The translations under genes were made by a program, and so were the position numbers. 64,000 nucleotides of DNA, taken from the NCBI GenBank assembly GCA_037142735.1, contig JBAXAB010000002.1, forward strand, positions 11,988-75,987, read 5' to 3'. The stretch comes from a bacterium. GTDB lineage: Bacteria; Patescibacteriota; Minisyncoccia; Phycocordibacterales; CAIZLB01. The notes beneath the pieces were generated by a model. The model did not search any database, had not been told where the DNA came from, and saw only the letters and a list, made by a program, of their open reading frames with translations. Shown piece by piece: positions 3,427 to 57,409 of the stretch (position 1 is its first letter; the number at the start of each line of letters is the position of its first letter).

Positions 3427-3996
3427 ATGATTGCACAACTTACTGGAACGGTAGCTTATATTGATTTAAAATTCATCATCCTTAATGTGAACAATGTTGG
3501 ATACAAAGTATTCACAACAAACGATGAACTCTCTACCCTCTCGGTTGGATCAGAGCGAGCATTTTGGATACATAGCACCATACGAGAGGATGCATTTGAT
3601 TTATATGGTTTTACTAAAAAAGAGAATCATGATTTTTTCGAGCTTCTCATCACGGTGTCTGGGATAGGACCCAAGTCCGCCTTAGGGATTTTATCGGTTG
3701 CTAGCGTAGAAAGCCTACGCGAAGCGATTGTTTCCGGAGAGACGTCATATATCACAAAGATAGGTGGTATCAGTAAAAAGATTGCAGAAAAAATCACAAT
3801 AGAGCTTCGTGGAAAAGTAACCAGTGATGAAGGTGAATTCTCTAAAGGGAGAGGTAAAAATGACGCTGATGCCCTTGATGCATTACGTGCGCTCGGATAT
3901 AGTCACAAAGAGGCTCGTGAGGCGCTAGAAAAGGTCCCAGCTACAATCAAGGACCCTGGAGAGAAGGTTAAAGCCGCACTGAAGAATCTCGCCTAA
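3427..3996 (+). CDS. ruvA: Holliday junction DNA helicase RuvA
   Basis: 189 aa; RuvA N-terminal OB domain, HhH region (GIGPKSA) and C-terminal domain; -10 TATAAT just upstream. Confidence 0.85.
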   Translation: MIAQLTGTVAYIDLKFIILNVNNVGYKVFTTNDELSTLSVGSERAFWIHSTIREDAFDLYGFTKKENHDFFELLITVSGIGPKSALGILSVASVESLREAIVSGETSYITKIGGISKKIAEKITIELRGKVTSDEGEFSKGRGKNDADALDALRALGYSHKEAREALEKVPATIKDPGEKVKAALKNLA

Positions 3997-3997
3997 T

Positions 3998-4891
3998 ATG
4001 CCGGAATTGCCAGAGGTAGAAACAACTTCACAGATGTTAAACAGGTTCGTTAAAGGACGAATGATTTTAGATGTTTGGACTGACTACAATAGCCCCTACT
4101 ATACAGGAAAGGATAATGTTAAGAATCCAGTTTATTTTAAGAAATTTAGGAAAGAAGTTAGTGGTAAAAAAATTGAGAAAGTTTTTCGTAGAGCAAAAAA
4201 TGTTTTGATTGATATTGAAGGAAAAAATACGATTTTGGTCCATATGAAAATGACCGGGCATTTATTGTATGGAAAGTATAAGTTTGAAAAGAAGAAGTGG
4301 GTACCAGAAGATCCAAAAAGCGCATTCGCTGATCCATTTAGTCGGTTCGTGCATTTGGTTTTCATTTTAGACAATGGAATGCATATCGCTTTTTCTGATA
4401 TGCGAAAGTTTGCGACGGTTACATTAGTTGATGATTTAGATACACATTTTAAGAAGATTGGCCCTGAACCTTTAGACGACAGTTTTACAGTAGAAGTTTT
4501 AAAAGAAAGGTTAAACAAGCAACCTAACGGAGCGGTAAAAACTGTTTTAATGAATCATGAAATTGTGGCAGGTATTGGGAATATTTATAGTGATGAAATT
4601 TTGTGGACGGCGGGAGTTCATCCTGAGAGAAAAGTATCGAAGATTAGTGATAAGGAATTGAAAGATATTCATAAGTGGATCAAGACCATCTTGCGCAAAG
4701 GAATTGATTTTGGAGGAGACTCTATGAGTGATTACAGAAATCCTATGGGTGAAAAAGGAAGTTTTCATCATGAGCATAATGCGTATAGAAGGACGGGGCA
4801 ACCTTGTGCAAGGAAGGGTTGCGAAGGAACAATTCGACGTAAAGTGATTGGCCAAAGATCAGCGCATTTTTGCGATGTGCATCAGAAATAA
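3998..4891 (+). CDS. mutM: formamidopyrimidine-DNA glycosylase
   Basis: N-terminal MPELPEVE catalytic motif and C-terminal zinc finger (CxxC...CxxC); 2-nt spacing after ruvA. Confidence 0.85.
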   Translation: MPELPEVETTSQMLNRFVKGRMILDVWTDYNSPYYTGKDNVKNPVYFKKFRKEVSGKKIEKVFRRAKNVLIDIEGKNTILVHMKMTGHLLYGKYKFEKKKWVPEDPKSAFADPFSRFVHLVFILDNGMHIAFSDMRKFATVTLVDDLDTHFKKIGPEPLDDSFTVEVLKERLNKQPNGAVKTVLMNHEIVAGIGNIYSDEILWTAGVHPERKVSKISDKELKDIHKWIKTILRKGIDFGGDSMSDYRNPMGEKGSFHHEHNAYRRTGQPCARKGCEGTIRRKVIGQRSAHFCDVHQK

Positions 4892-5489: not shown

Positions 5490-5562
5490 GCGCCCGTAGC
5501 TCAGTCGGTAGAGCACCTGCCTTTTAAGCAGAGGGTCGTTGGTTCGATTCCAACCGGGCGCA
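5490..5562 (+). tRNA. tRNA-Lys (anticodon TTT)
   Basis: 73-nt cloverleaf: acceptor gcgcccg/cgggcgc, D-arm gctc/gagc, anticodon loop cttttaa, T-loop ttcgatt; CCA not encoded; -35/-10-like TTGGAC..TATATT upstream. Confidence 0.85.
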
Positions 5563-5651
5563 CAGACGATTTTTAGATCTATTTTATTTGATTAAAGTGA
5601 GGATCGATTCCAGTAGACTGCACAAAAGGTTAGAGGATGACGTATTCTGAG

Positions 5652-30263: not shown

Positions 30264-31388
30264 TTAATAGATAAGGTCAAGTTGAGTTCCGGCCTGCTGC
30301 AGAACTTTGTCGCCATTTGAGGCAGACACATCAATTGTAGACTGGCCGCTATCTTGTTTCACTTTTTGTAACACAAGAAAATCTTGATTTTGAGGTAGGG
30401 TGTCTAATGTTGTCCCGTTTATTTTCCATACATATGGAATAGATTTTTTACTGCCAGTACTAAAGAAATATGGATAAGCTCCCATTTGTAAATCCTGGGC
30501 TCCAAAATTGTATGTTCCAATTGCTGCTGTGTTAAATATAGGTCCATAAGTTGGATGGATCTCATACATTACTAATGCGGGCTGGACCGGTCCAACATCT
30601 AGACTTCCTACACCTGTAGAATCTTTATTAAAGGGGTCATAGGCTGTCACCTCTACCGAGGTCGGTTTCGCTAGGATGGATCCTGAAAAATCATAGAAGT
30701 TTTTTCCATAACCAGATTTGTCTGCATAGTTTGTATGGTCAATTCTCCAATTATAGATGGCCTTAGAAGGTTGAATTTTTGCTCCAACATCATTTGTGAT
30801 ATTTGGCATGGCCACGAATTGCACATATGCTTCTGGTGTGTACAGAGCTTTTCCTTTATAGAAAGGGGGTGTGTATGTATTAGCTTGCCAAAGCACATCC
30901 ACATCAGAAGGTTTAAAATTGAAGTTTTTAATAACTTCTGCACCGTATTTTGGTTGAATATGAAGTTCAATTTTGTTTGATTGCCCGTCCGTCCCTGCTT
31001 TAAATATGAACTGCTTTTCACCTTGCCCCTTAAGAACGCTCTTTCCATTCATGACCCAATTTATCTGAGCGGCATCTATGTCTATTCCTCCGTATGCACT
31101 TACATTAATAGTCACCGTCTCTCCTGGTTGTGGCACCTCCGGGTTCACATCAACAGATACTTGTTCTTTGATATCAGGTTCCTTGGCGCTAAGTGGAAGT
31201 TTAGCCTGCTCCTCAGGTGACAGATTTGCGTAGGGGTTTGGTAATATCAAAACATGAGGTTCTGTAGAGGTTGCAGATGTGTTGATGTCTTGGGCTTTAA
31301 CTAAACCTGCACCAAAAAATAGAATCAAAAAAGATAAGAGAAATATAAAAAAATATTTACGAGTAAACTTTTTATTCATCGATTTCAT
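30264..31388 (-). CDS. hypothetical secreted beta-rich protein
   Basis: 374 aa with signal peptide; no catalytic motif recognised. Confidence 0.45.
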   Translation of the reverse strand: MKSMNKKFTRKYFFIFLLSFLILFFGAGLVKAQDINTSATSTEPHVLILPNPYANLSPEEQAKLPLSAKEPDIKEQVSVDVNPEVPQPGETVTINVSAYGGIDIDAAQINWVMNGKSVLKGQGEKQFIFKAGTDGQSNKIELHIQPKYGAEVIKNFNFKPSDVDVLWQANTYTPPFYKGKALYTPEAYVQFVAMPNITNDVGAKIQPSKAIYNWRIDHTNYADKSGYGKNFYDFSGSILAKPTSVEVTAYDPFNKDSTGVGSLDVGPVQPALVMYEIHPTYGPIFNTAAIGTYNFGAQDLQMGAYPYFFSTGSKKSIPYVWKINGTTLDTLPQNQDFLVLQKVKQDSGQSTIDVSASNGDKVLQQAGTQLDLIY

Positions 31389-52794: not shown

Positions 52795-52867
52795 GCGCTC
52801 GTGGCTCAATGGATAGAGCACTTGGCTTCGGACCAAGGGATTGCAGGTTCGAATCCTGCCGAGCGCA
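52795..52867 (+). tRNA. tRNA-Arg (anticodon TCG)
   Basis: 73-nt cloverleaf; acceptor gcgctcg/cgagcgc; anticodon loop cttcgga; T-loop ttcgaat. Confidence 0.85.
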
Positions 52868-52940
52868 CACGACCTTTAGTTATTTTTTTTATTAAGATTC
52901 CTTTCCGGGGTCTAAGTTAAGAAAAGTATAAAAGACAAAT

Positions 52941-53011
52941 GCAGGTATGGTTTAGTGGTAGAATGCGTCCTTGCCAAGGACGAGACGAGAGTTCGATTCT
53001 CTCTACCTGCA
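52941..53011 (+). tRNA. tRNA-Gly (anticodon GCC)
   Basis: 71-nt cloverleaf; acceptor gcaggta/tacctgc; anticodon stem cgtcc/ggacg with loop ttgccaa. Confidence 0.85.
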
Positions 53012-53351
53012 CAGAATATAATTCTAGCCTCTAGTTTCAAAAAACATTGATAAGTAAGGATTTTTATGAATTGGCCATTGCCAAAATGTGCAAAACTGTG
53101 GATAACTCAGTGGATATGTGTATAAAAGACAGATATCAAAAATGACAAAAATTGTCCTCTAGAAGTGTATTTTTCTAATATATCTATATTTATCAAGCTA
53201 TTTTGCGTTTTGGTGCATAAAAGACGCGGCTATAACATGTGACTTTTTATGTATCACGTGAAACATTGGTTTTATAGGATTTTAAGACAAATTAAGCAAT
53301 AATTCATTCAAGATTAAGGTTTATTTGCCTTTCGAAGCTTAAAATAGGAGA

Positions 53352-53843
53352 ATGATTGAAAGTAAGATTTTAGGTGAGTTTGGAGAGTTTTTGGCAGGGT
53401 GCCGACTTGTATCTAAAGGTCACAAAATTTTGCGAACTAGATATAGGAAGTGGGGTGGGGAAATAGATATTATTTCAACAAAAAACAAGGTTATCTATTT
53501 TAACGAAATTAAGACCAGGATTGGTAAAGGGAAGGATGGGGTGGATCTTCGGAACATAGGTATCACTAGACACAAAGTCAGCAAGGTCATTAAATGCGCC
53601 CAACATTTTATCCAGAATGAGATAGCTGATATTTTCTATACAACTAAGCAATTCGATGCCTATTTTTTAGAGGTTGTCCTAAATCAAGAGATTAAGAGGA
53701 TTCAAGAAGATGTTTCTACAGTTTCGGACCTGAAATGCTACTTTACTGAAGGAAAGATAAGAATTTTGGCCACATATATAGAAAATATGGATAGGGAAGT
53801 TTTCGGGTGCTATGGAACAAGTTTAATAAGTGATAAAGATTGA
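53352..53843 (+). CDS. YraN/UPF0102-family (restriction-endonuclease-like fold) protein with C-terminal extension
   Basis: N-terminal ~110 aa match the YraN pattern (GE..A..YL..KG..IL.RNYR...GEIDII); extra roughly 50-aa C-terminus. Confidence 0.5.
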   Translation: MIESKILGEFGEFLAGCRLVSKGHKILRTRYRKWGGEIDIISTKNKVIYFNEIKTRIGKGKDGVDLRNIGITRHKVSKVIKCAQHFIQNEIADIFYTTKQFDAYFLEVVLNQEIKRIQEDVSTVSDLKCYFTEGKIRILATYIENMDREVFGCYGTSLISDKD

Positions 53844-53888
53844 GATATGAGGATATCTGTGTTAGGATTCAACACGTTATCGGCATAT

Positions 53889-53961
53889 CGGGGCGTAGTG
53901 TAACGGTTAACATTCCTGTTTTGGGAACAGGCGACTCAGGGTTCGAATCCCTGCGCCCCGA
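53889..53961 (+). tRNA. tRNA-Pro (anticodon TGG)
   Basis: 73-nt cloverleaf; acceptor cggggcg/cgccccg; anticodon loop tttggga. Confidence 0.85.
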
Positions 53962-53966
53962 CAATT

Positions 53967-54305
53967 TTGAAAAAGTTTATAAAAAACAAGGAGGATTTTG
54001 AGTGTGAGAAATGCCATACCAAAGTGATTGGTACTGGCTATACAAACCATTGCCCTAATTGCCTCTATAGTAAGCATGTTGATGTGTCTCCAGGAGATAG
54101 GGCTAATCCATGTGGGGGATTAATGAAGCCTGTTAGAGTAGAGGGAACAGGTATAGACAAAATGCAGATAGTTCACAGGTGTGTTAAGTGTGGCGTAGAG
54201 AAAAATAACAAAATCCAATCCTCTGACAACATAGAGATGGTTGCAAATGTCGCCAAAGAGTTTGCGAAGGAAAAAGTAGAGGGTTGGAAGTTGAAAAGAG
54301 ATTAA
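53967..54305 (+). CDS. RNHCP-domain zinc-ribbon protein
   Basis: EDFECEKCHTKVIGTGYTNHCPNCLYSKHVD matches the RNHCP signature. Start is uncertain: the ORF track uses a TTG 5 nt after tRNA-Pro. Confidence 0.5.
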   Translation: MKKFIKNKEDFECEKCHTKVIGTGYTNHCPNCLYSKHVDVSPGDRANPCGGLMKPVRVEGTGIDKMQIVHRCVKCGVEKNNKIQSSDNIEMVANVAKEFAKEKVEGWKLKRD

Positions 54306-54351
54306 ATTGTAGATTTCAAGGCTCTCTGGTATATTACCAGGGTACAAAAAT

Positions 54352-54422
54352 GCGGGATTGGTTTAGTGGTAGAATGACTGCCTTCCAAGCAGTAGACAAG
54401 GGTTCGATTCCCTTATCCCGCA
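54352..54422 (+). tRNA. tRNA-Gly (anticodon TCC)
   Basis: 71-nt cloverleaf; acceptor gcgggat/atcccgc; anticodon stem actgc/gcagt with loop cttccaa. Confidence 0.85.
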
Positions 54423-54426
54423 CTAG

Positions 54427-55411: not shown

Positions 55412-56263
55412 TCACCTAGAAAGAACTTCAAAAGGACCAAAAGTAAAATGTTTTTCAACACAACTTTCGAAACTCTCCATTGCTCTCTGCCACTTATCCA
55501 TTTCATTTTCTCCAACTTCAACCTCAATGGCGAAATGATAAACGCCATTTCCCGCATGTACCGAATGGATCTGAATCATGTTCAAACCTTCCGTCTTGAA
55601 CGGAAGGAGTGAGTCAACCAACGCACCTGGTTTATGTGGTGTTTTGTACACAATCAGCGCACGATTTTTCTTTCCTACTGCAACCTTGTGTTCCTTCGGT
55701 GTAATTAAAAAGAAGGTCGTGATCGCCTCCTTGTCCTCGAATGCTTCGTCTAGAACTTTCAATCCATATTTCTCCGCCGCTGAACGAGGTCCGAGCGCTG
55801 CACAGCTTTTGTGTTCTTCGCTTTCTGCTACGAGTCGCGCCGCTTCACCGTTGCTTGATGCATTTAATGTTGGGAGTTCAATTTTGCCCTTACAGGCCTC
55901 CAGTGCCTTCGGGTGTGCGATTACAGAAGTTATTTCTTCATTATCTTGTCTTACCATCAAGCAGAAATGAAGTTTCATCTGTACTGCGCCGACGATGTGA
56001 AACGTGCATTCAGGAGACTGTAACGTCTCAATGAATGCCTCCAATGGCTCTGCTACTCGGCCCCCAGCTAGTGTTTCCATGGCAATTGCTCCGTAACCTT
56101 CGTGTTTAGCGATTAGTCGCAAAACTTCTCCATTATTTTTTGCTTCAATATAGTTTTCTGTAGTAACTGCAGGCGCGCCGTAGATGCCCGCCAATGCAAC
56201 ATATGCATCATGCGAGAATGTTGCCCCGATAGGGCCGAGGAATGTGATGTGTGGTGTTTTCAT
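55412..56263 (-). CDS. pheA: prephenate dehydratase with C-terminal ACT domain
   Basis: ITFLGPIGATFSHDA PDT N-terminal motif; ACT-like C-terminal region. Confidence 0.75.
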   Translation of the reverse strand: MKTPHITFLGPIGATFSHDAYVALAGIYGAPAVTTENYIEAKNNGEVLRLIAKHEGYGAIAMETLAGGRVAEPLEAFIETLQSPECTFHIVGAVQMKLHFCLMVRQDNEEITSVIAHPKALEACKGKIELPTLNASSNGEAARLVAESEEHKSCAALGPRSAAEKYGLKVLDEAFEDKEAITTFFLITPKEHKVAVGKKNRALIVYKTPHKPGALVDSLLPFKTEGLNMIQIHSVHAGNGVYHFAIEVEVGENEMDKWQRAMESFESCVEKHFTFGPFEVLSR

Positions 56264-56290
56264 GTTGTTTCTAATGGTTGTGTTGTTTAT

Positions 56291-56340
56291 GTGTGATACA
56301 TCAAAACAAAAAACCGCCGGTCCGGAGAGGATTAGCGGTT
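56291..56340. terminator. bidirectional rho-independent terminator
   Basis: aaaccgc...gcggttt hairpin flanked by an A-run and a T-run. Confidence 0.5.
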
Positions 56341-56498
56341 TCTTTGTCTAGATTTTTACAACGCTAATTTACTCTTCGGTTTGCCGATTGGTTAAAAAAG
56401 AAACTAAAGAATGAGTTAGTATGTTGTATCACGGGATTAAGGGTAACTTAATTTTAAAACTTATGCAAATATGTGAATTTTTCTTAATCTTTTCTTAA

Positions 56499-56526
56499 TT
56501 GACATTTCATCTCCATTTTCTATACT
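56499..56526 (+). promoter_or_regulatory. sigma70-like promoter TTGACA-16-TATACT
   Basis: consensus -35 at 56499-56504 and -10 at 56521-56526 on the plus strand, in a region with no plus-strand CDS. Confidence 0.45.
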
Positions 56527-56532
56527 TGTACC

Positions 56533-56617
56533 AAGCTATAGATTAATCTCAGATTAGCCTATAGCATTTTTGGGACTTCCCACGGCCCCGCCCCCACAAG
56601 GGGCGGGGAGTATTTTT
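56533..56617 (+). ncRNA. candidate ~85-nt small RNA
   Basis: bounded by the promoter above and a GC-rich terminator (ccccgcccc-cacaa-ggggcgggg then TTTTT at 56586-56617); internal extended hairpin gctatag..ttaatc-tca-gattag..ctatagc; 3' end abuts the stop codon of the convergent mazF-like gene. Confidence 0.35.
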
Positions 56618-56622
56618 ATAAA

Positions 56623-57015
56623 TTACAGATCCAAAAGGCTCTTTAACCGAGCTTTTAGGGATAGATAAGTATTAATATCGAGTTGCCCATATTTATCCTG
56701 CAACCTTCGGTAGTTAAATGTTTTTATTTGGGCCAAGTTCGCAGTACTAATTTTTCCACTAAAATTGATTGATATATACCAACTCCCAGCCTTAATTTTA
56801 CTGGTCATTGGTATACCAACAAAAGAATCTTTAGATAATTTCTTTAAAATAATAACAGGTCGTATATATAAATTATCCTTACCGTTGATTTCTGAACCTA
56901 TATTAATTCCAACACTGCACCACCAGGCCTCACCTTCATTGAAATAAGGAGGTTGGTTGGCTGTAGCATCAAGATTTTGTTTTAATTCAGACCATTTCAA
57001 AAAATCTTTTAGCAC
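56623..57015 (-). CDS. MazF/PemK-family endoribonuclease toxin-like protein (GTG start)
   Basis: 130 aa; GEAWW...GSEINGK...RPVIIL...GIPMTSK pattern parallels PemK/Kid (GEIWLV...GHEQQG.RPVLIV...VVPVTS). Confidence 0.6.
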   Translation of the reverse strand: MLKDFLKWSELKQNLDATANQPPYFNEGEAWWCSVGINIGSEINGKDNLYIRPVIILKKLSKDSFVGIPMTSKIKAGSWYISINFSGKISTANLAQIKTFNYRRLQDKYGQLDINTYLSLKARLKSLLDL

Positions 57016-57073
57016 ACCCTATAAATATCATGCGGGGTATGAATATTTATTAAATGATTTATAAATTCTTCTC

Positions 57074-57107
57074 TCCAAAATAAAACACCCCACTTGCGTG
57101 AGGTGTT
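57074..57107 (-). terminator. rho-independent terminator of hup
   Basis: aacacc..cac-ttgc-gtg..ggtgtt hairpin followed on the minus strand by TTTTATTTT. Confidence 0.5.
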
Positions 57108-57136
57108 TTATTAAGTGGGTTTAAATAATCGAAGGA

Positions 57137-57409
57137 TTATTTAACAGCATCTTTAAATGCTTTCGCCGCGCGGAACTTTGGAACTTTCATAGCTGGAACT
57201 TTAACCGCTTCACCAGTTCTAGGGTTTCTAGCTGTGCGAGCCGCTCGCTGTTTAGCAGAGAAGATACCAAGACCAGCAATAGAAACTTCTTCTCCTTTCT
57301 TTACTGACTTGATGATAGCATCGATAAGTGTGTCAACAACTTGTTCAGCCTGAACTTTAGTTGTGTTGATGATACCGTGTACTACATCTGCAAGACTTGC
57401 TTTGTTCAT
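57137..57409 (-). CDS. hup: DNA-binding protein HU
   Basis: 90 aa; HU/IHF fold signature (GLGIFSAKQRAARTARNPRTGEAVKVPA). Confidence 0.85.
   Translation of the reverse strand: MNKASLADVVHGIINTTKVQAEQVVDTLIDAIIKSVKKGEEVSIAGLGIFSAKQRAARTARNPRTGEAVKVPAMKVPKFRAAKAFKDAVK

Follow-up and report, generated by a model that had tools for sequence, protein, structure and literature searches.

A small RNA gene convergent on a MazF/PemK-type toxin gene in Patescibacteria, most likely encoding the toxin's antidote

We analyzed a 64,000-nt stretch of a Patescibacteriota genome (GenBank assembly GCA_037142735.1, contig JBAXAB010000002.1, positions 11,988 to 75,987; "the window" below). An initial annotation, made from the letters of the window alone, had proposed that a small RNA (sRNA) gene converges on an orphan toxin gene of the MazF/PemK type, and that the sRNA may be an RNA antitoxin or a regulator. 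Our results support this proposal: the sRNA is most likely the antidote of the MazF-type toxin, and the pair is most likely a toxin-antitoxin (TA) arrangement that had not been described before. The two genes keep the same anatomy across a large family of loci; they are conserved, they have moved as a unit, and they have been inherited together. From these patterns, we infer that the sRNA is transcribed, that the protein is toxic, that the sRNA neutralizes it, and by what mode it might act. The pair would then be an RNA-antitoxin module built on a MazF toxin, which would be widespread, unannotated, and unexpected for this family of toxins.

The gene pair in the window

The pair consists of these elements (coordinates are those of the window):

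56499-56526, plus strand: sRNA promoter, with the -35 element TTGACA at 56499-56504, a 16-nt spacer, and the -10 element TATACT at 56521-56526
56533-56617, plus strand: predicted sRNA of about 85 nt, from a predicted start to an end in the U-run after the terminator
56535-56565, plus strand: lineage-specific 5' hairpin of 31 nt (GCUAUAG-A-UUAAUC / GAUUAG-C-CUAUAGC), between the start site and the core
56566-56616, plus strand: conserved core, comprising the leader AUUUU (56566-56570), hairpin 1, the linker CGG, hairpin 2 (the terminator), and a U-rich tail
56571-56574 and 56579-56582, plus strand: hairpin 1, UGGG / CCCA, with loop ACUU
56586-56608, plus strand: stem of hairpin 2, CCCCGCCCC/GGGGCGGGG, 9 bp and all GC, followed by the tail AGTATTTTTA
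56623-57015, minus strand: MazF/PemK-fold toxin gene, 130 amino acids (aa), with a GTG start and a TAA stop (56623-56625)

The profile match, the predicted fold, and the catalytic positions all identify the toxin as a member of the PemK/MazF family. It matches Pfam's PemK_toxin (PF02452) with E = 8.3e-9 and 36.1 bits, which is above the cut-off of 23.1, and the match covers positions 2-108 of the 109 positions in the profile. PF02452 is also present in all of the listed relatives of the toxin. AlphaFold2, with an alignment of 103 sequences as input, gave a confident model (pLDDT 92.8, pTM 0.87) with the predicted MazF/Kid fold, that is, an SH3-like barrel and a C-terminal helix. In a Foldseek comparison to the PDB, the top 50 matches of the model were all MazF, MoxT, or YdcE (TM-scores of 0.63-0.79, normalized to the target), and the best were MazF-type toxins from Staphylococcus aureus, Bacillus subtilis, Bacillus anthracis, Mycobacterium tuberculosis, and Escherichia coli. 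These matches and the Pfam hit agree with the PemK/MazF identity that the initial annotation had assigned.

The catalytic residues are retained as well. In a profile search of PDB sequences, EndoA (YdcE) of B. subtilis ranked first (E = 5e-8). With R25 and T48 of B. subtilis MazF as the catalytic reference, the profile alignment (4mdx and 1ne8) places Arg25-Pro26 and Thr48 of EndoA at R52-P53 and T71 (in PMTSK) of the window toxin. R52 and P53 are invariant across the 103 family sequences, and the catalytic Arg and Thr/Ser positions are aligned and conserved in the family, whose invariant residues are W32, G36, N38, E42, G45, K46, R52, P53, P69, and R104. The window toxin also has one extra N-terminal helix (residues 5-17) and a motif that is specific to its subfamily (WWC..G.N.G.E..GK). 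Given its family, the protein is expected to be a toxic RNase. A comparison to NCBIfam matched the MazF equivalog weakly at best, and PADLOC had no match.

We found no protein antitoxin next to the toxin, in agreement with the initial annotation, which had reported no antitoxin-sized open reading frame (ORF) on either side. The toxin strand has no ORF of 25 aa or more in either flank within the window. The flanking ORFs of at least 25 aa are all on the plus strand: one of 25 aa (56421-56498); one of 32 aa that begins with TTG and crosses the terminator hairpin (56570-56668); and one of 35 aa (56957-57064) that overlaps the start of the toxin gene. The 64-kb window contains no second PemK-like gene or other toxin paralog, so an antitoxin in an operon with a paralog was not found there. 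Nor did a clustering of the small ORFs up to 350 nt away from the toxin, made for 80 related loci, reveal a recurrent one: the biggest cluster was from 5 closely related loci, and its members mostly overlap the sRNA. The same clustering gave no third conserved gene beside the toxin and the sRNA.

The pair is surrounded by these genes and spacers:

57016-57078, minus strand: 5' region of the toxin gene, from the hup terminator to the GTG, short and without a strong consensus promoter
57079-57112: terminator hairpin of hup
57137-57409, minus strand: hup, upstream of the toxin gene
55412-56263, minus strand: prephenate dehydratase-like gene (PDT), downstream of the toxin gene

As had been noted, the 120 nt upstream of the toxin are taken up by the hup terminator, whose hairpin occupies most of the 121-nt gap. 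The region beyond the 3' end of the toxin gene had been given as 280 nt, which needs correction: the intergenic region is 359 nt (56264-56622), of which the toxin unit takes up just the part from about 56495 to 56622.

The promoter that had been proposed on the opposite strand (TTGACA-16-TATACT) is present. It matches 11 of 12 consensus positions and is the best site in the 4 kb that we scanned, where other sites reach 9 of 12 at most; promoter-like sites are not enriched in this region overall (5 found versus 8.8 expected). We placed the start of the sRNA at the A that is 7 nt past the -10 element, based on the family profile, which has Y-A there. Folding is also in keeping with the proposed hairpin-rich transcript of about 85 nt: the predicted RNA (56530-56618) has a folding energy of -39.5 kcal/mol (z = -5.7), which none of 200 shuffles equaled. 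The U-run of the terminator ends at 56617 and the complement of the toxin's stop codon is at 56623-56625, which leaves the 5-nt gap that had been described for this GC-rich terminator. What makes the RNA as long as 85 nt is the inverted repeat at 56535-56565, which most relatives lack. This hairpin is also found in three close relatives of the locus (L003, L004, and L101; we number related loci in this way), with differences confined to the loop and the bulge, and in another locus, L034, its place is taken by an unrelated hairpin.

The conserved core can be recognized independently of the window. Covariance model R2 (see below), which was built without the window or its close relatives, matches 56566-56616 on the plus strand with 37.3 bits (E = 1.2e-13), and this is the sole strong match in the 64-kb window. 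The runner-up (30799-30852 on the plus strand, 15 bits, E = 0.005) lies inside an ORF of 374 aa with no promoter or toxin nearby, and we attribute it to chance. The sRNA matched no Rfam 15 family in the window, whether the limit was the gathering score or E ≤ 10, and none in seven related loci at E ≤ 1. A sub-threshold match to Chlorobi-1 in the window turned out to be the hup terminator.

A direct repeat of TTTTCTTAATC (1.9 copies, 56479-56499, plus strand) abuts the -35 element, at the edge of what seems to be an inserted cassette. The motif (T)TTCTTAAT(C) occurs twice against the -35 element of the sRNA promoter, and similar copies, often repeated, lie upstream of the toxin in L003, L004, L056, L058, L069, L079, and L083. 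This motif may be a lineage-specific promoter element or the site of a regulator.

Conservation and mobility of the pair

A scan of metagenomes with the family's motif gave at least 564 relatives, and we kept 80 loci. There were 84 related loci with enough sequence downstream of the toxin, and 65 of these form a non-redundant set. The family is much larger than this: a profile search found 3140 toxin clusters at E ≤ 1e-10. Those with names are called only "mRNA interferase MazF" or "type II ... PemK/MazF family toxin," and no partner is annotated. Few of the relatives are close. L005 is from the same genome as the window (100% identical over 4.7 kb), and L003, L004, and L101 keep the order RNase Y - hup - toxin - PDT, with toxins that are 70-74% identical to the window's. 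The distant homologs are 34-52% identical and have unrelated neighborhoods.

When the DNA past the toxin stop codons was reverse-complemented, nearly every locus turned out to have a sigma-70-type promoter, a short conserved core, and a GC-rich hairpin at the stop codon. In 75 of the 84 loci, the core pattern is found directly after the toxin's stop codon on the opposite strand; on the toxin strand, it is found in just 1. A stricter form of the pattern gave 66 matches directly behind a toxin stop, versus 7 elsewhere in the 505 kb; some of these 7 are second modules. The sRNA promoter matches at least 10 of 12 positions in 48 of the 65 non-redundant loci; just 4 of the 84 regions upstream of the toxin contain a promoter that reaches 10 of 12. 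The base profile of the sRNA promoter is fully of the sigma-70 type, with T.93 T.74 G.72 A.72 C.69 in the -35 element and TATA(A/C)T as the -10 element. The end of the -10 element is exactly 10 nt from the core in 54 of the 65 loci and 11 nt from it in 4 more. After the -10 element come five unconserved bases and then Y, A (89%), Y, W, U, U. Because the bases are unconserved until a Y-A at the expected start position, the sRNA is expected to start at the conserved A. Measured from this A to a point 5 nt beyond hairpin 2, the RNA would be 40-52 nt long (median, 44 nt), and in most loci, the interval from the promoter to the toxin stop holds nothing beyond this unit of 40-50 nt.

Covariance models gave a similar picture. 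The first model (R1) was built from 12 seeds with the same geometry, 3 of which had one linker base removed to keep the register; R2 was then rebuilt from real sequences only (the matches to R1). In 79 loci (237 kb on each of 2 strands), R1 had 67 matches at E ≤ 0.01, and all 67 lie opposite the toxin strand. Sixty-two of them are just past the toxin stop, and 2 more are past a second toxin paralog that is truncated by the end of the contig. The others are a second tandem unit (L088), one match at the edge of a locus, and one weak match. Overall, at least 64 related loci from uncultured bacteria carry the sRNA together with a mazF-like gene, which is the pairing that the initial annotation had suggested looking for in related genomes. 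Some loci have more than one copy: in L088, a single toxin is followed by two sRNA units in tandem (1393-1469), and both L037 (2-301) and L061 (3-251) have two toxin-sRNA modules side by side.

The consensus of the core is A-Y-W-U-U; a 4-bp stem, (U/C)GG(G/C)...(C/G)CC(A/G), with a loop of 4-5 nt that is usually AUUN; a (C/U)G linker; and hairpin 2, which has 5-11 bp, is rich in GC, and is often closed by GCAA, GAAA, or UUCG. Standard pairing in hairpin 1 is intact in all 62 sequences that we compared. The first pair is mostly U-A (50 sequences, versus 12 with C-G), and the fourth is mostly G-C (52, versus 10 with C-G); the two G-C pairs in the middle do not change, even in orientation. On a neighbor-joining tree of the toxins, the swap from G-C to C-G falls at six or more separate places and the change from U-A to C-G falls at two or more. 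Since the swaps are at several separate places in the tree, they represent repeated compensatory events and not a single change that was inherited. Hairpin 2 can form in 61 of 65 loci, as compared to 24% of shuffles, and with many different stem sequences. In the alignment that we used for it (A5, which is N-padded), the stems were chosen to be perfect, so 100% pairing is circular and only the variety of pair types is informative. The UU before hairpin 1 is present in 100% of loci. The type of 5' leader (ACAU, AUAU, or ACUU) tracks the clades of the toxin, and the leader motif reappears in the 3' tail in 36 of 62 sequences, versus 21.9 ± 2.8 in shuffles. The distant members L094 and L095 have a variant core, AAAUUGGC(A/G)AUAGCCACA, and in these loci, a hairpin without a U-run abuts the toxin stop.

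The toxin and the RNA travel together among unrelated neighborhoods. Besides the site between hup and PDT, the pair is found near rpoC, a dnaX-like gene and tRNA-Gln, prfA and rpsB, the gene for GAPDH, and lexA and the gene for IMPDH. Examples of these positions, and of a contig with several copies, are as follows:

L001: toxin after rpoC
L002 (Saccharibacteria): toxin between a dnaX-like gene and tRNA-Gln
L009: toxin after prfA
L007: toxin before the GAPDH gene
L094: toxin after lexA
L011: three toxin copies in one 775-kb contig, at 2501-2896, 3731-4126, and 4291-4680

As in L011, some genomes have 2-3 copies of the toxin. Each of the L011 paralogs has its own convergent promoter and an RNA that is more divergent, and there is a NYN-domain gene between two of them. 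All three have TGA at a conserved Trp, which in two of them is in the WW motif, so L011 appears to read UGA as Trp (as in code 4).

The clearest view of an insertion comes from L100, whose PDT is 84% identical to the window's and whose gene order is the same (RNase Y - hup - X - PDT). In L100, X (1662-2229) is occupied, on the other strand, by genes for a RelB-like antitoxin and a YafQ/HigB/ParE-like toxin. Identity between the window and L100 is 85-91% through about 56296-56490 and falls to 43% across the sRNA and its promoter. This break in homology, together with the type II pair at the same site, implies that the MazF-like gene and the RNA (about 56495-57075) were inserted as one cassette. 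The site between hup and PDT thus appears to be a hot spot for TA cassettes. We also looked for copies in phages: viral contigs contain one distant relative of the toxin, as well as two exact 17-mer matches that have no toxin, promoter, or hairpin around them and are due to chance.

Possible modes of action and known TA systems

In the mechanism that we propose, about 56495-57075 would be a self-contained, mobile, two-part cassette that resembles a TA system. One part would be the gene for a MazF-fold endoribonuclease, with a promoter of its own that is weak or missing; the other would be the strongly promoted, convergent sRNA gene, with its terminator abutting the toxin stop. The neutralizing partner would be the sRNA instead of a protein. 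In most relatives, the RNA would begin at the A of a single-stranded A-Y-W-U-U, which would be followed by the 4-bp hairpin and a GC clamp, and it might sit in the RNA groove of the toxin as a pseudo-substrate that is cleaved poorly or not at all. The A-Y-W-U-U leader resembles the cleavage sites of MazF/PemK-type toxins (U^ACAU, U^AY), minus the 5' nucleotide. If the RNA starts at the A, then the nucleotide whose 2'-OH attacks would be missing, and the RNA would be a ligand and not a substrate. Antisense pairing at the 3' end of the toxin transcript may add to this direct recognition or replace it.

We favor direct, sequence-specific recognition of the RNA by the toxin, as in type III systems, over antisense pairing, but we would put its probability slightly below one half. 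Several lines of evidence lead us to favor it. First, the core, the GG/CC orientation, and the spacing from the -10 element to the core are fixed even though the toxins are just 35-50% identical. Second, the type of leader tracks the toxin clades, and the leader recurs in the tail. Third, the leader resembles MazF/PemK sites and the RNA would start at the A. Direct recognition is also supported by the two tandem units of L088 and by the lack of any cognate-specific pairing to the 5' region of the toxin: predicted pairing of the sRNA to the 5' or ribosome-binding region was the same for cognate and non-cognate pairs.

Other observations weigh against direct recognition or weaken the case for it. 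In the window and in L003, L004, L101, and L034, the extra 5' hairpin makes the leader internal instead of 5'-terminal, so the idea of a pseudo-substrate is weaker for the window's own locus. The layout is always convergent and abutting, which antisense pairing needs and which a protein-binding RNA does not strictly need. In roughly a third of the relatives, the RNA appears, from the placement of hairpins, to be a true antisense to the 3' end of the toxin. The co-occurrence of the motif in the leader and the tail, as well as the swaps of base pairs, are confounded by shared ancestry. Finally, the asymmetry of wobble pairs in hairpin 2 is weak (14 G.U versus 9 A.C); because of this, the strand assignment rests on the promoter and the U-run. 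The most ambitious version of our proposal is that the subfamily (thousands of members, mostly from Patescibacteria or CPR) swapped its protein antitoxin for an RNA of 40-50 nt that starts at a truncated recognition site of the toxin and acts as an uncleavable pseudo-substrate. We are inclined to doubt this version.

The strongest alternative is that the sRNA is a cis-antisense RNA, similar to those of type I systems: the toxin mRNA would read through the sRNA gene, and either the duplex would be cut by RNase III or the mRNA would lose its 3' hairpin, which would lead to decay. In B. subtilis, txpA/RatA and bsrG/SR4 act by such 3' antisense pairing. The sRNA is fully complementary to any toxin transcript that runs past the stop codon, and on the toxin strand, the hairpin has an A-run before it and no U-run after it. 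Of the 30 loci in which the tail of hairpin 2 is poor in U, 20 have a third hairpin, on the same strand and with its own U-run, within the final 10-15 codons of the toxin. Of the 32 loci with a good U-run behind hairpin 2, such as the window has, 29 lack any further hairpin (20 of 30 versus 3 of 32, Fisher p = 4e-6, without correction for kinship). The convergent layout, the variant hairpins of L094 and L095, which lack a U-run and abut the stop, and the combination of a strong sRNA promoter with a weak toxin promoter, which is the usual imbalance in type I systems, fit this explanation as well. However, complementarity is automatic in this layout, so it does not explain why a core of 15 nt, the GG/CC orientation, and the spacing to the start are fixed among such divergent toxins. 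Also, the short form of the RNA, which the window has, does not overlap the toxin's coding region. On balance, we consider a purely antisense mode to be possible but less probable than direct recognition.

Another explanation is that the RNA and the protein are a dedicated ribonucleoprotein or an enzyme and its substrate, with a role other than self-neutralization; the MazF-like protein might, for instance, process this RNA, or be guided or regulated by it, in a housekeeping or defense task. The locus would then fall outside the usual meaning of a TA system. The tight association and the sequence conservation would be the same in that case, and the 3140 clusters are often found amid housekeeping genes. 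The patchy distribution, the varied chromosomal positions, the multiple copies in some genomes, and the type II pair at the same site in a close relative are a better fit to a selfish or defensive cassette; also, no third conserved gene accompanies the pair. We therefore think that such a role is improbable.

It is less probable still that a protein antitoxin encoded elsewhere acts in trans and that the sRNA is an accessory regulator. Our evidence about this is limited to 64 kb and to short metagenomic contigs. Within these, there is no second PemK-like gene in the window and no recurrent small ORF within 350 nt of the toxin in the 80 loci, and cassettes that move between sites would need a linked antidote.

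Least probable of all is that there is no functional sRNA, and that the locus has a terminator shared by converging genes plus a chance promoter, or a DNA-level site similar to the attC of integrons: the lack of enrichment of promoter-like sites in the 4 kb and the weak wobble asymmetry are in its favor, but the full sigma-70-type promoter is at a fixed spacing in 54 of 65 loci, a unit of 40-50 nt stands alone between the promoter and the toxin stop in most loci, hairpin 1 is conserved apart from the terminator, and all 67 covariance-model matches are on one strand. By inspection, we saw no long imperfect palindrome and no GTTRRRY/RYYYAAC core sites of the attC type.

The locus shares features with several known systems. 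As in type II systems of the mazEF or pemIK (kis-kid) type, the toxin is a genuine MazF/PemK protein in a small mobile cassette. Unlike those systems, there is no adjacent gene for MazE, PemI, or another protein antitoxin, either here or in 80 relatives; a convergent RNA gene takes the place of the antitoxin, and the toxin has the extra N-terminal helix and the WWC..G.N.G.E..GK motif. As in type III systems (toxIN, cptIN, tenpIN, and AbiQ), a protein that is a predicted endoribonuclease is paired with a small, structured, conserved RNA. ToxN is structurally related to the Kid/MazF fold. The short motif repeats in the flanks and the tandem units of L088 also recall the processing sites of ToxI. 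However, the toxin is of the PemK/MazF type and not ToxN, AbiQ, CptN, or TenpN (PemK_toxin is the only Pfam match at E ≤ 1). Instead of 2-5.5 direct repeats, there is one RNA unit, 40-50 nt long (about 85 nt in the window), and no ToxI-like tandem repeat array is present in the window. In type III systems, the RNA is upstream on the same strand with a terminator in between; here, it is downstream on the opposite strand with a strong promoter of its own. The locus thus lacks the features that define type II (an adjacent protein antitoxin) and type III (a ToxN-type toxin and an upstream array).

Type I systems with a convergent sRNA (txpA/RatA, bsrG/SR4, and bsrE/SR5) are similar in that the sRNA, which is predicted to be strongly expressed here, would pair with the 3' end of any toxin transcript that reads past the stop codon, and in that the long-form RNA of some relatives appears to overlap the last codons of the toxin. 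Type I toxins need not be membrane peptides, as symE/SymR and ralR/RalA show. But the toxin here is a soluble 130-aa protein of the MazF fold and not a small hydrophobic peptide (usually under 60 aa), the overlap of the short form is at most about 45 nt of 3' untranslated region, and the core of the RNA is conserved in a far broader family than is usual for cis-antisense RNAs.

In a full-text literature search, we found no report of a conserved convergent sRNA paired with a MazF/PemK toxin. A "pemK RNA motif" is reportedly part of the 2017 survey by Weinberg; the main text of that survey does not mention it, and the motif would presumably be in Rfam, which gave no match. MazF is the textbook type II toxin, and its relatives are assumed to need a protein similar to MazE. 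If the conserved 45-nt RNA is the partner, then many "orphan" toxins in genome-reduced, uncultured bacteria would be explained, and toxins of the MazF fold would join those that are known to have RNA antitoxins. The RNA would also be a minimal and easily synthesized inhibitor of a MazF-type RNase, and the pair would be a clean system for studying how RNA replaces protein as an antidote. If the RNA is indeed a pseudo-substrate, then it would represent a new class of RNA antitoxins, linking the MazF of type II to the ToxN of type III, and would be the simplest RNA antitoxin known.

A phenylalanine attenuator and other features

The rest of the intergenic region belongs to PDT and not to the toxin, as judged by its conservation. 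Among relatives, identity is 88-95% in the block at 56296-56490 and 42-60% in the other spacers, and no other toxin locus has the block. In L100, it lies before PDT; L102 has it before PDT as well (nhmmer E = 1.5e-19), with a PDT that is 66% identical and a different synteny. By its sequence, the block is a classical leader-peptide attenuator, responding to phenylalanine, for the prephenate dehydratase gene:

56432-56364, minus strand: leader ORF of 20-22 codons, GUG-I-Q-H-T-N-S-F-F-S-F-F-F-N-Q-S-A-N-R-R-V-N-stop, or (GUG)IQHTNSFFSFFFNQSANRRVN
56345-56305, minus strand: attenuator hairpin and U-run, 40 nt before the start of PDT (ATG at 56263)

Six genomes keep the reading frame of the leader ORF, even where a 3-nt indel falls in it (FFSFFF, FFSFW, and FFGFFF). 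The attenuator accounts for a weak match to Rfam's Phe_leader at 56305-56426 on the minus strand. Before it was recognized, we considered SRP RNA, RNase P RNA, tmRNA, and a T-box for this block, but neither Rfam nor ARAGORN supported these candidates. A -10-like TACCCT ends 7 nt before the GUG of the leader ORF, and given this position, the leader mRNA may be leaderless. In L003, a GC-rich hairpin of 41 nt (CGCGTCGCGC...GCGCGACG, at approximately 3704-3744) lies between the attenuator's terminator and the start of PDT, and it is in no other relative that we compared.

Other RNA features were noticed near some of the toxins. About 450 nt upstream of the toxin start, L095 and L097 have a sequence that looks by eye like RNase P RNA (GAGGAAAGUCCGG ... 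ACAAAAUCCGGCUUAU). L016 has a sub-threshold match to Rfam's RT-7 RNA at 2463-2617 on the plus strand (52 bits versus a gathering score of 117, E = 7e-10). The window itself contains five tRNA genes, at 52795-54423 and at 5490-5563: Arg-TCG, Gly-GCC, Pro-TGG, and Gly-TCC form a loose cluster, and the other is Lys-TTT. The cluster is syntenic in L003.

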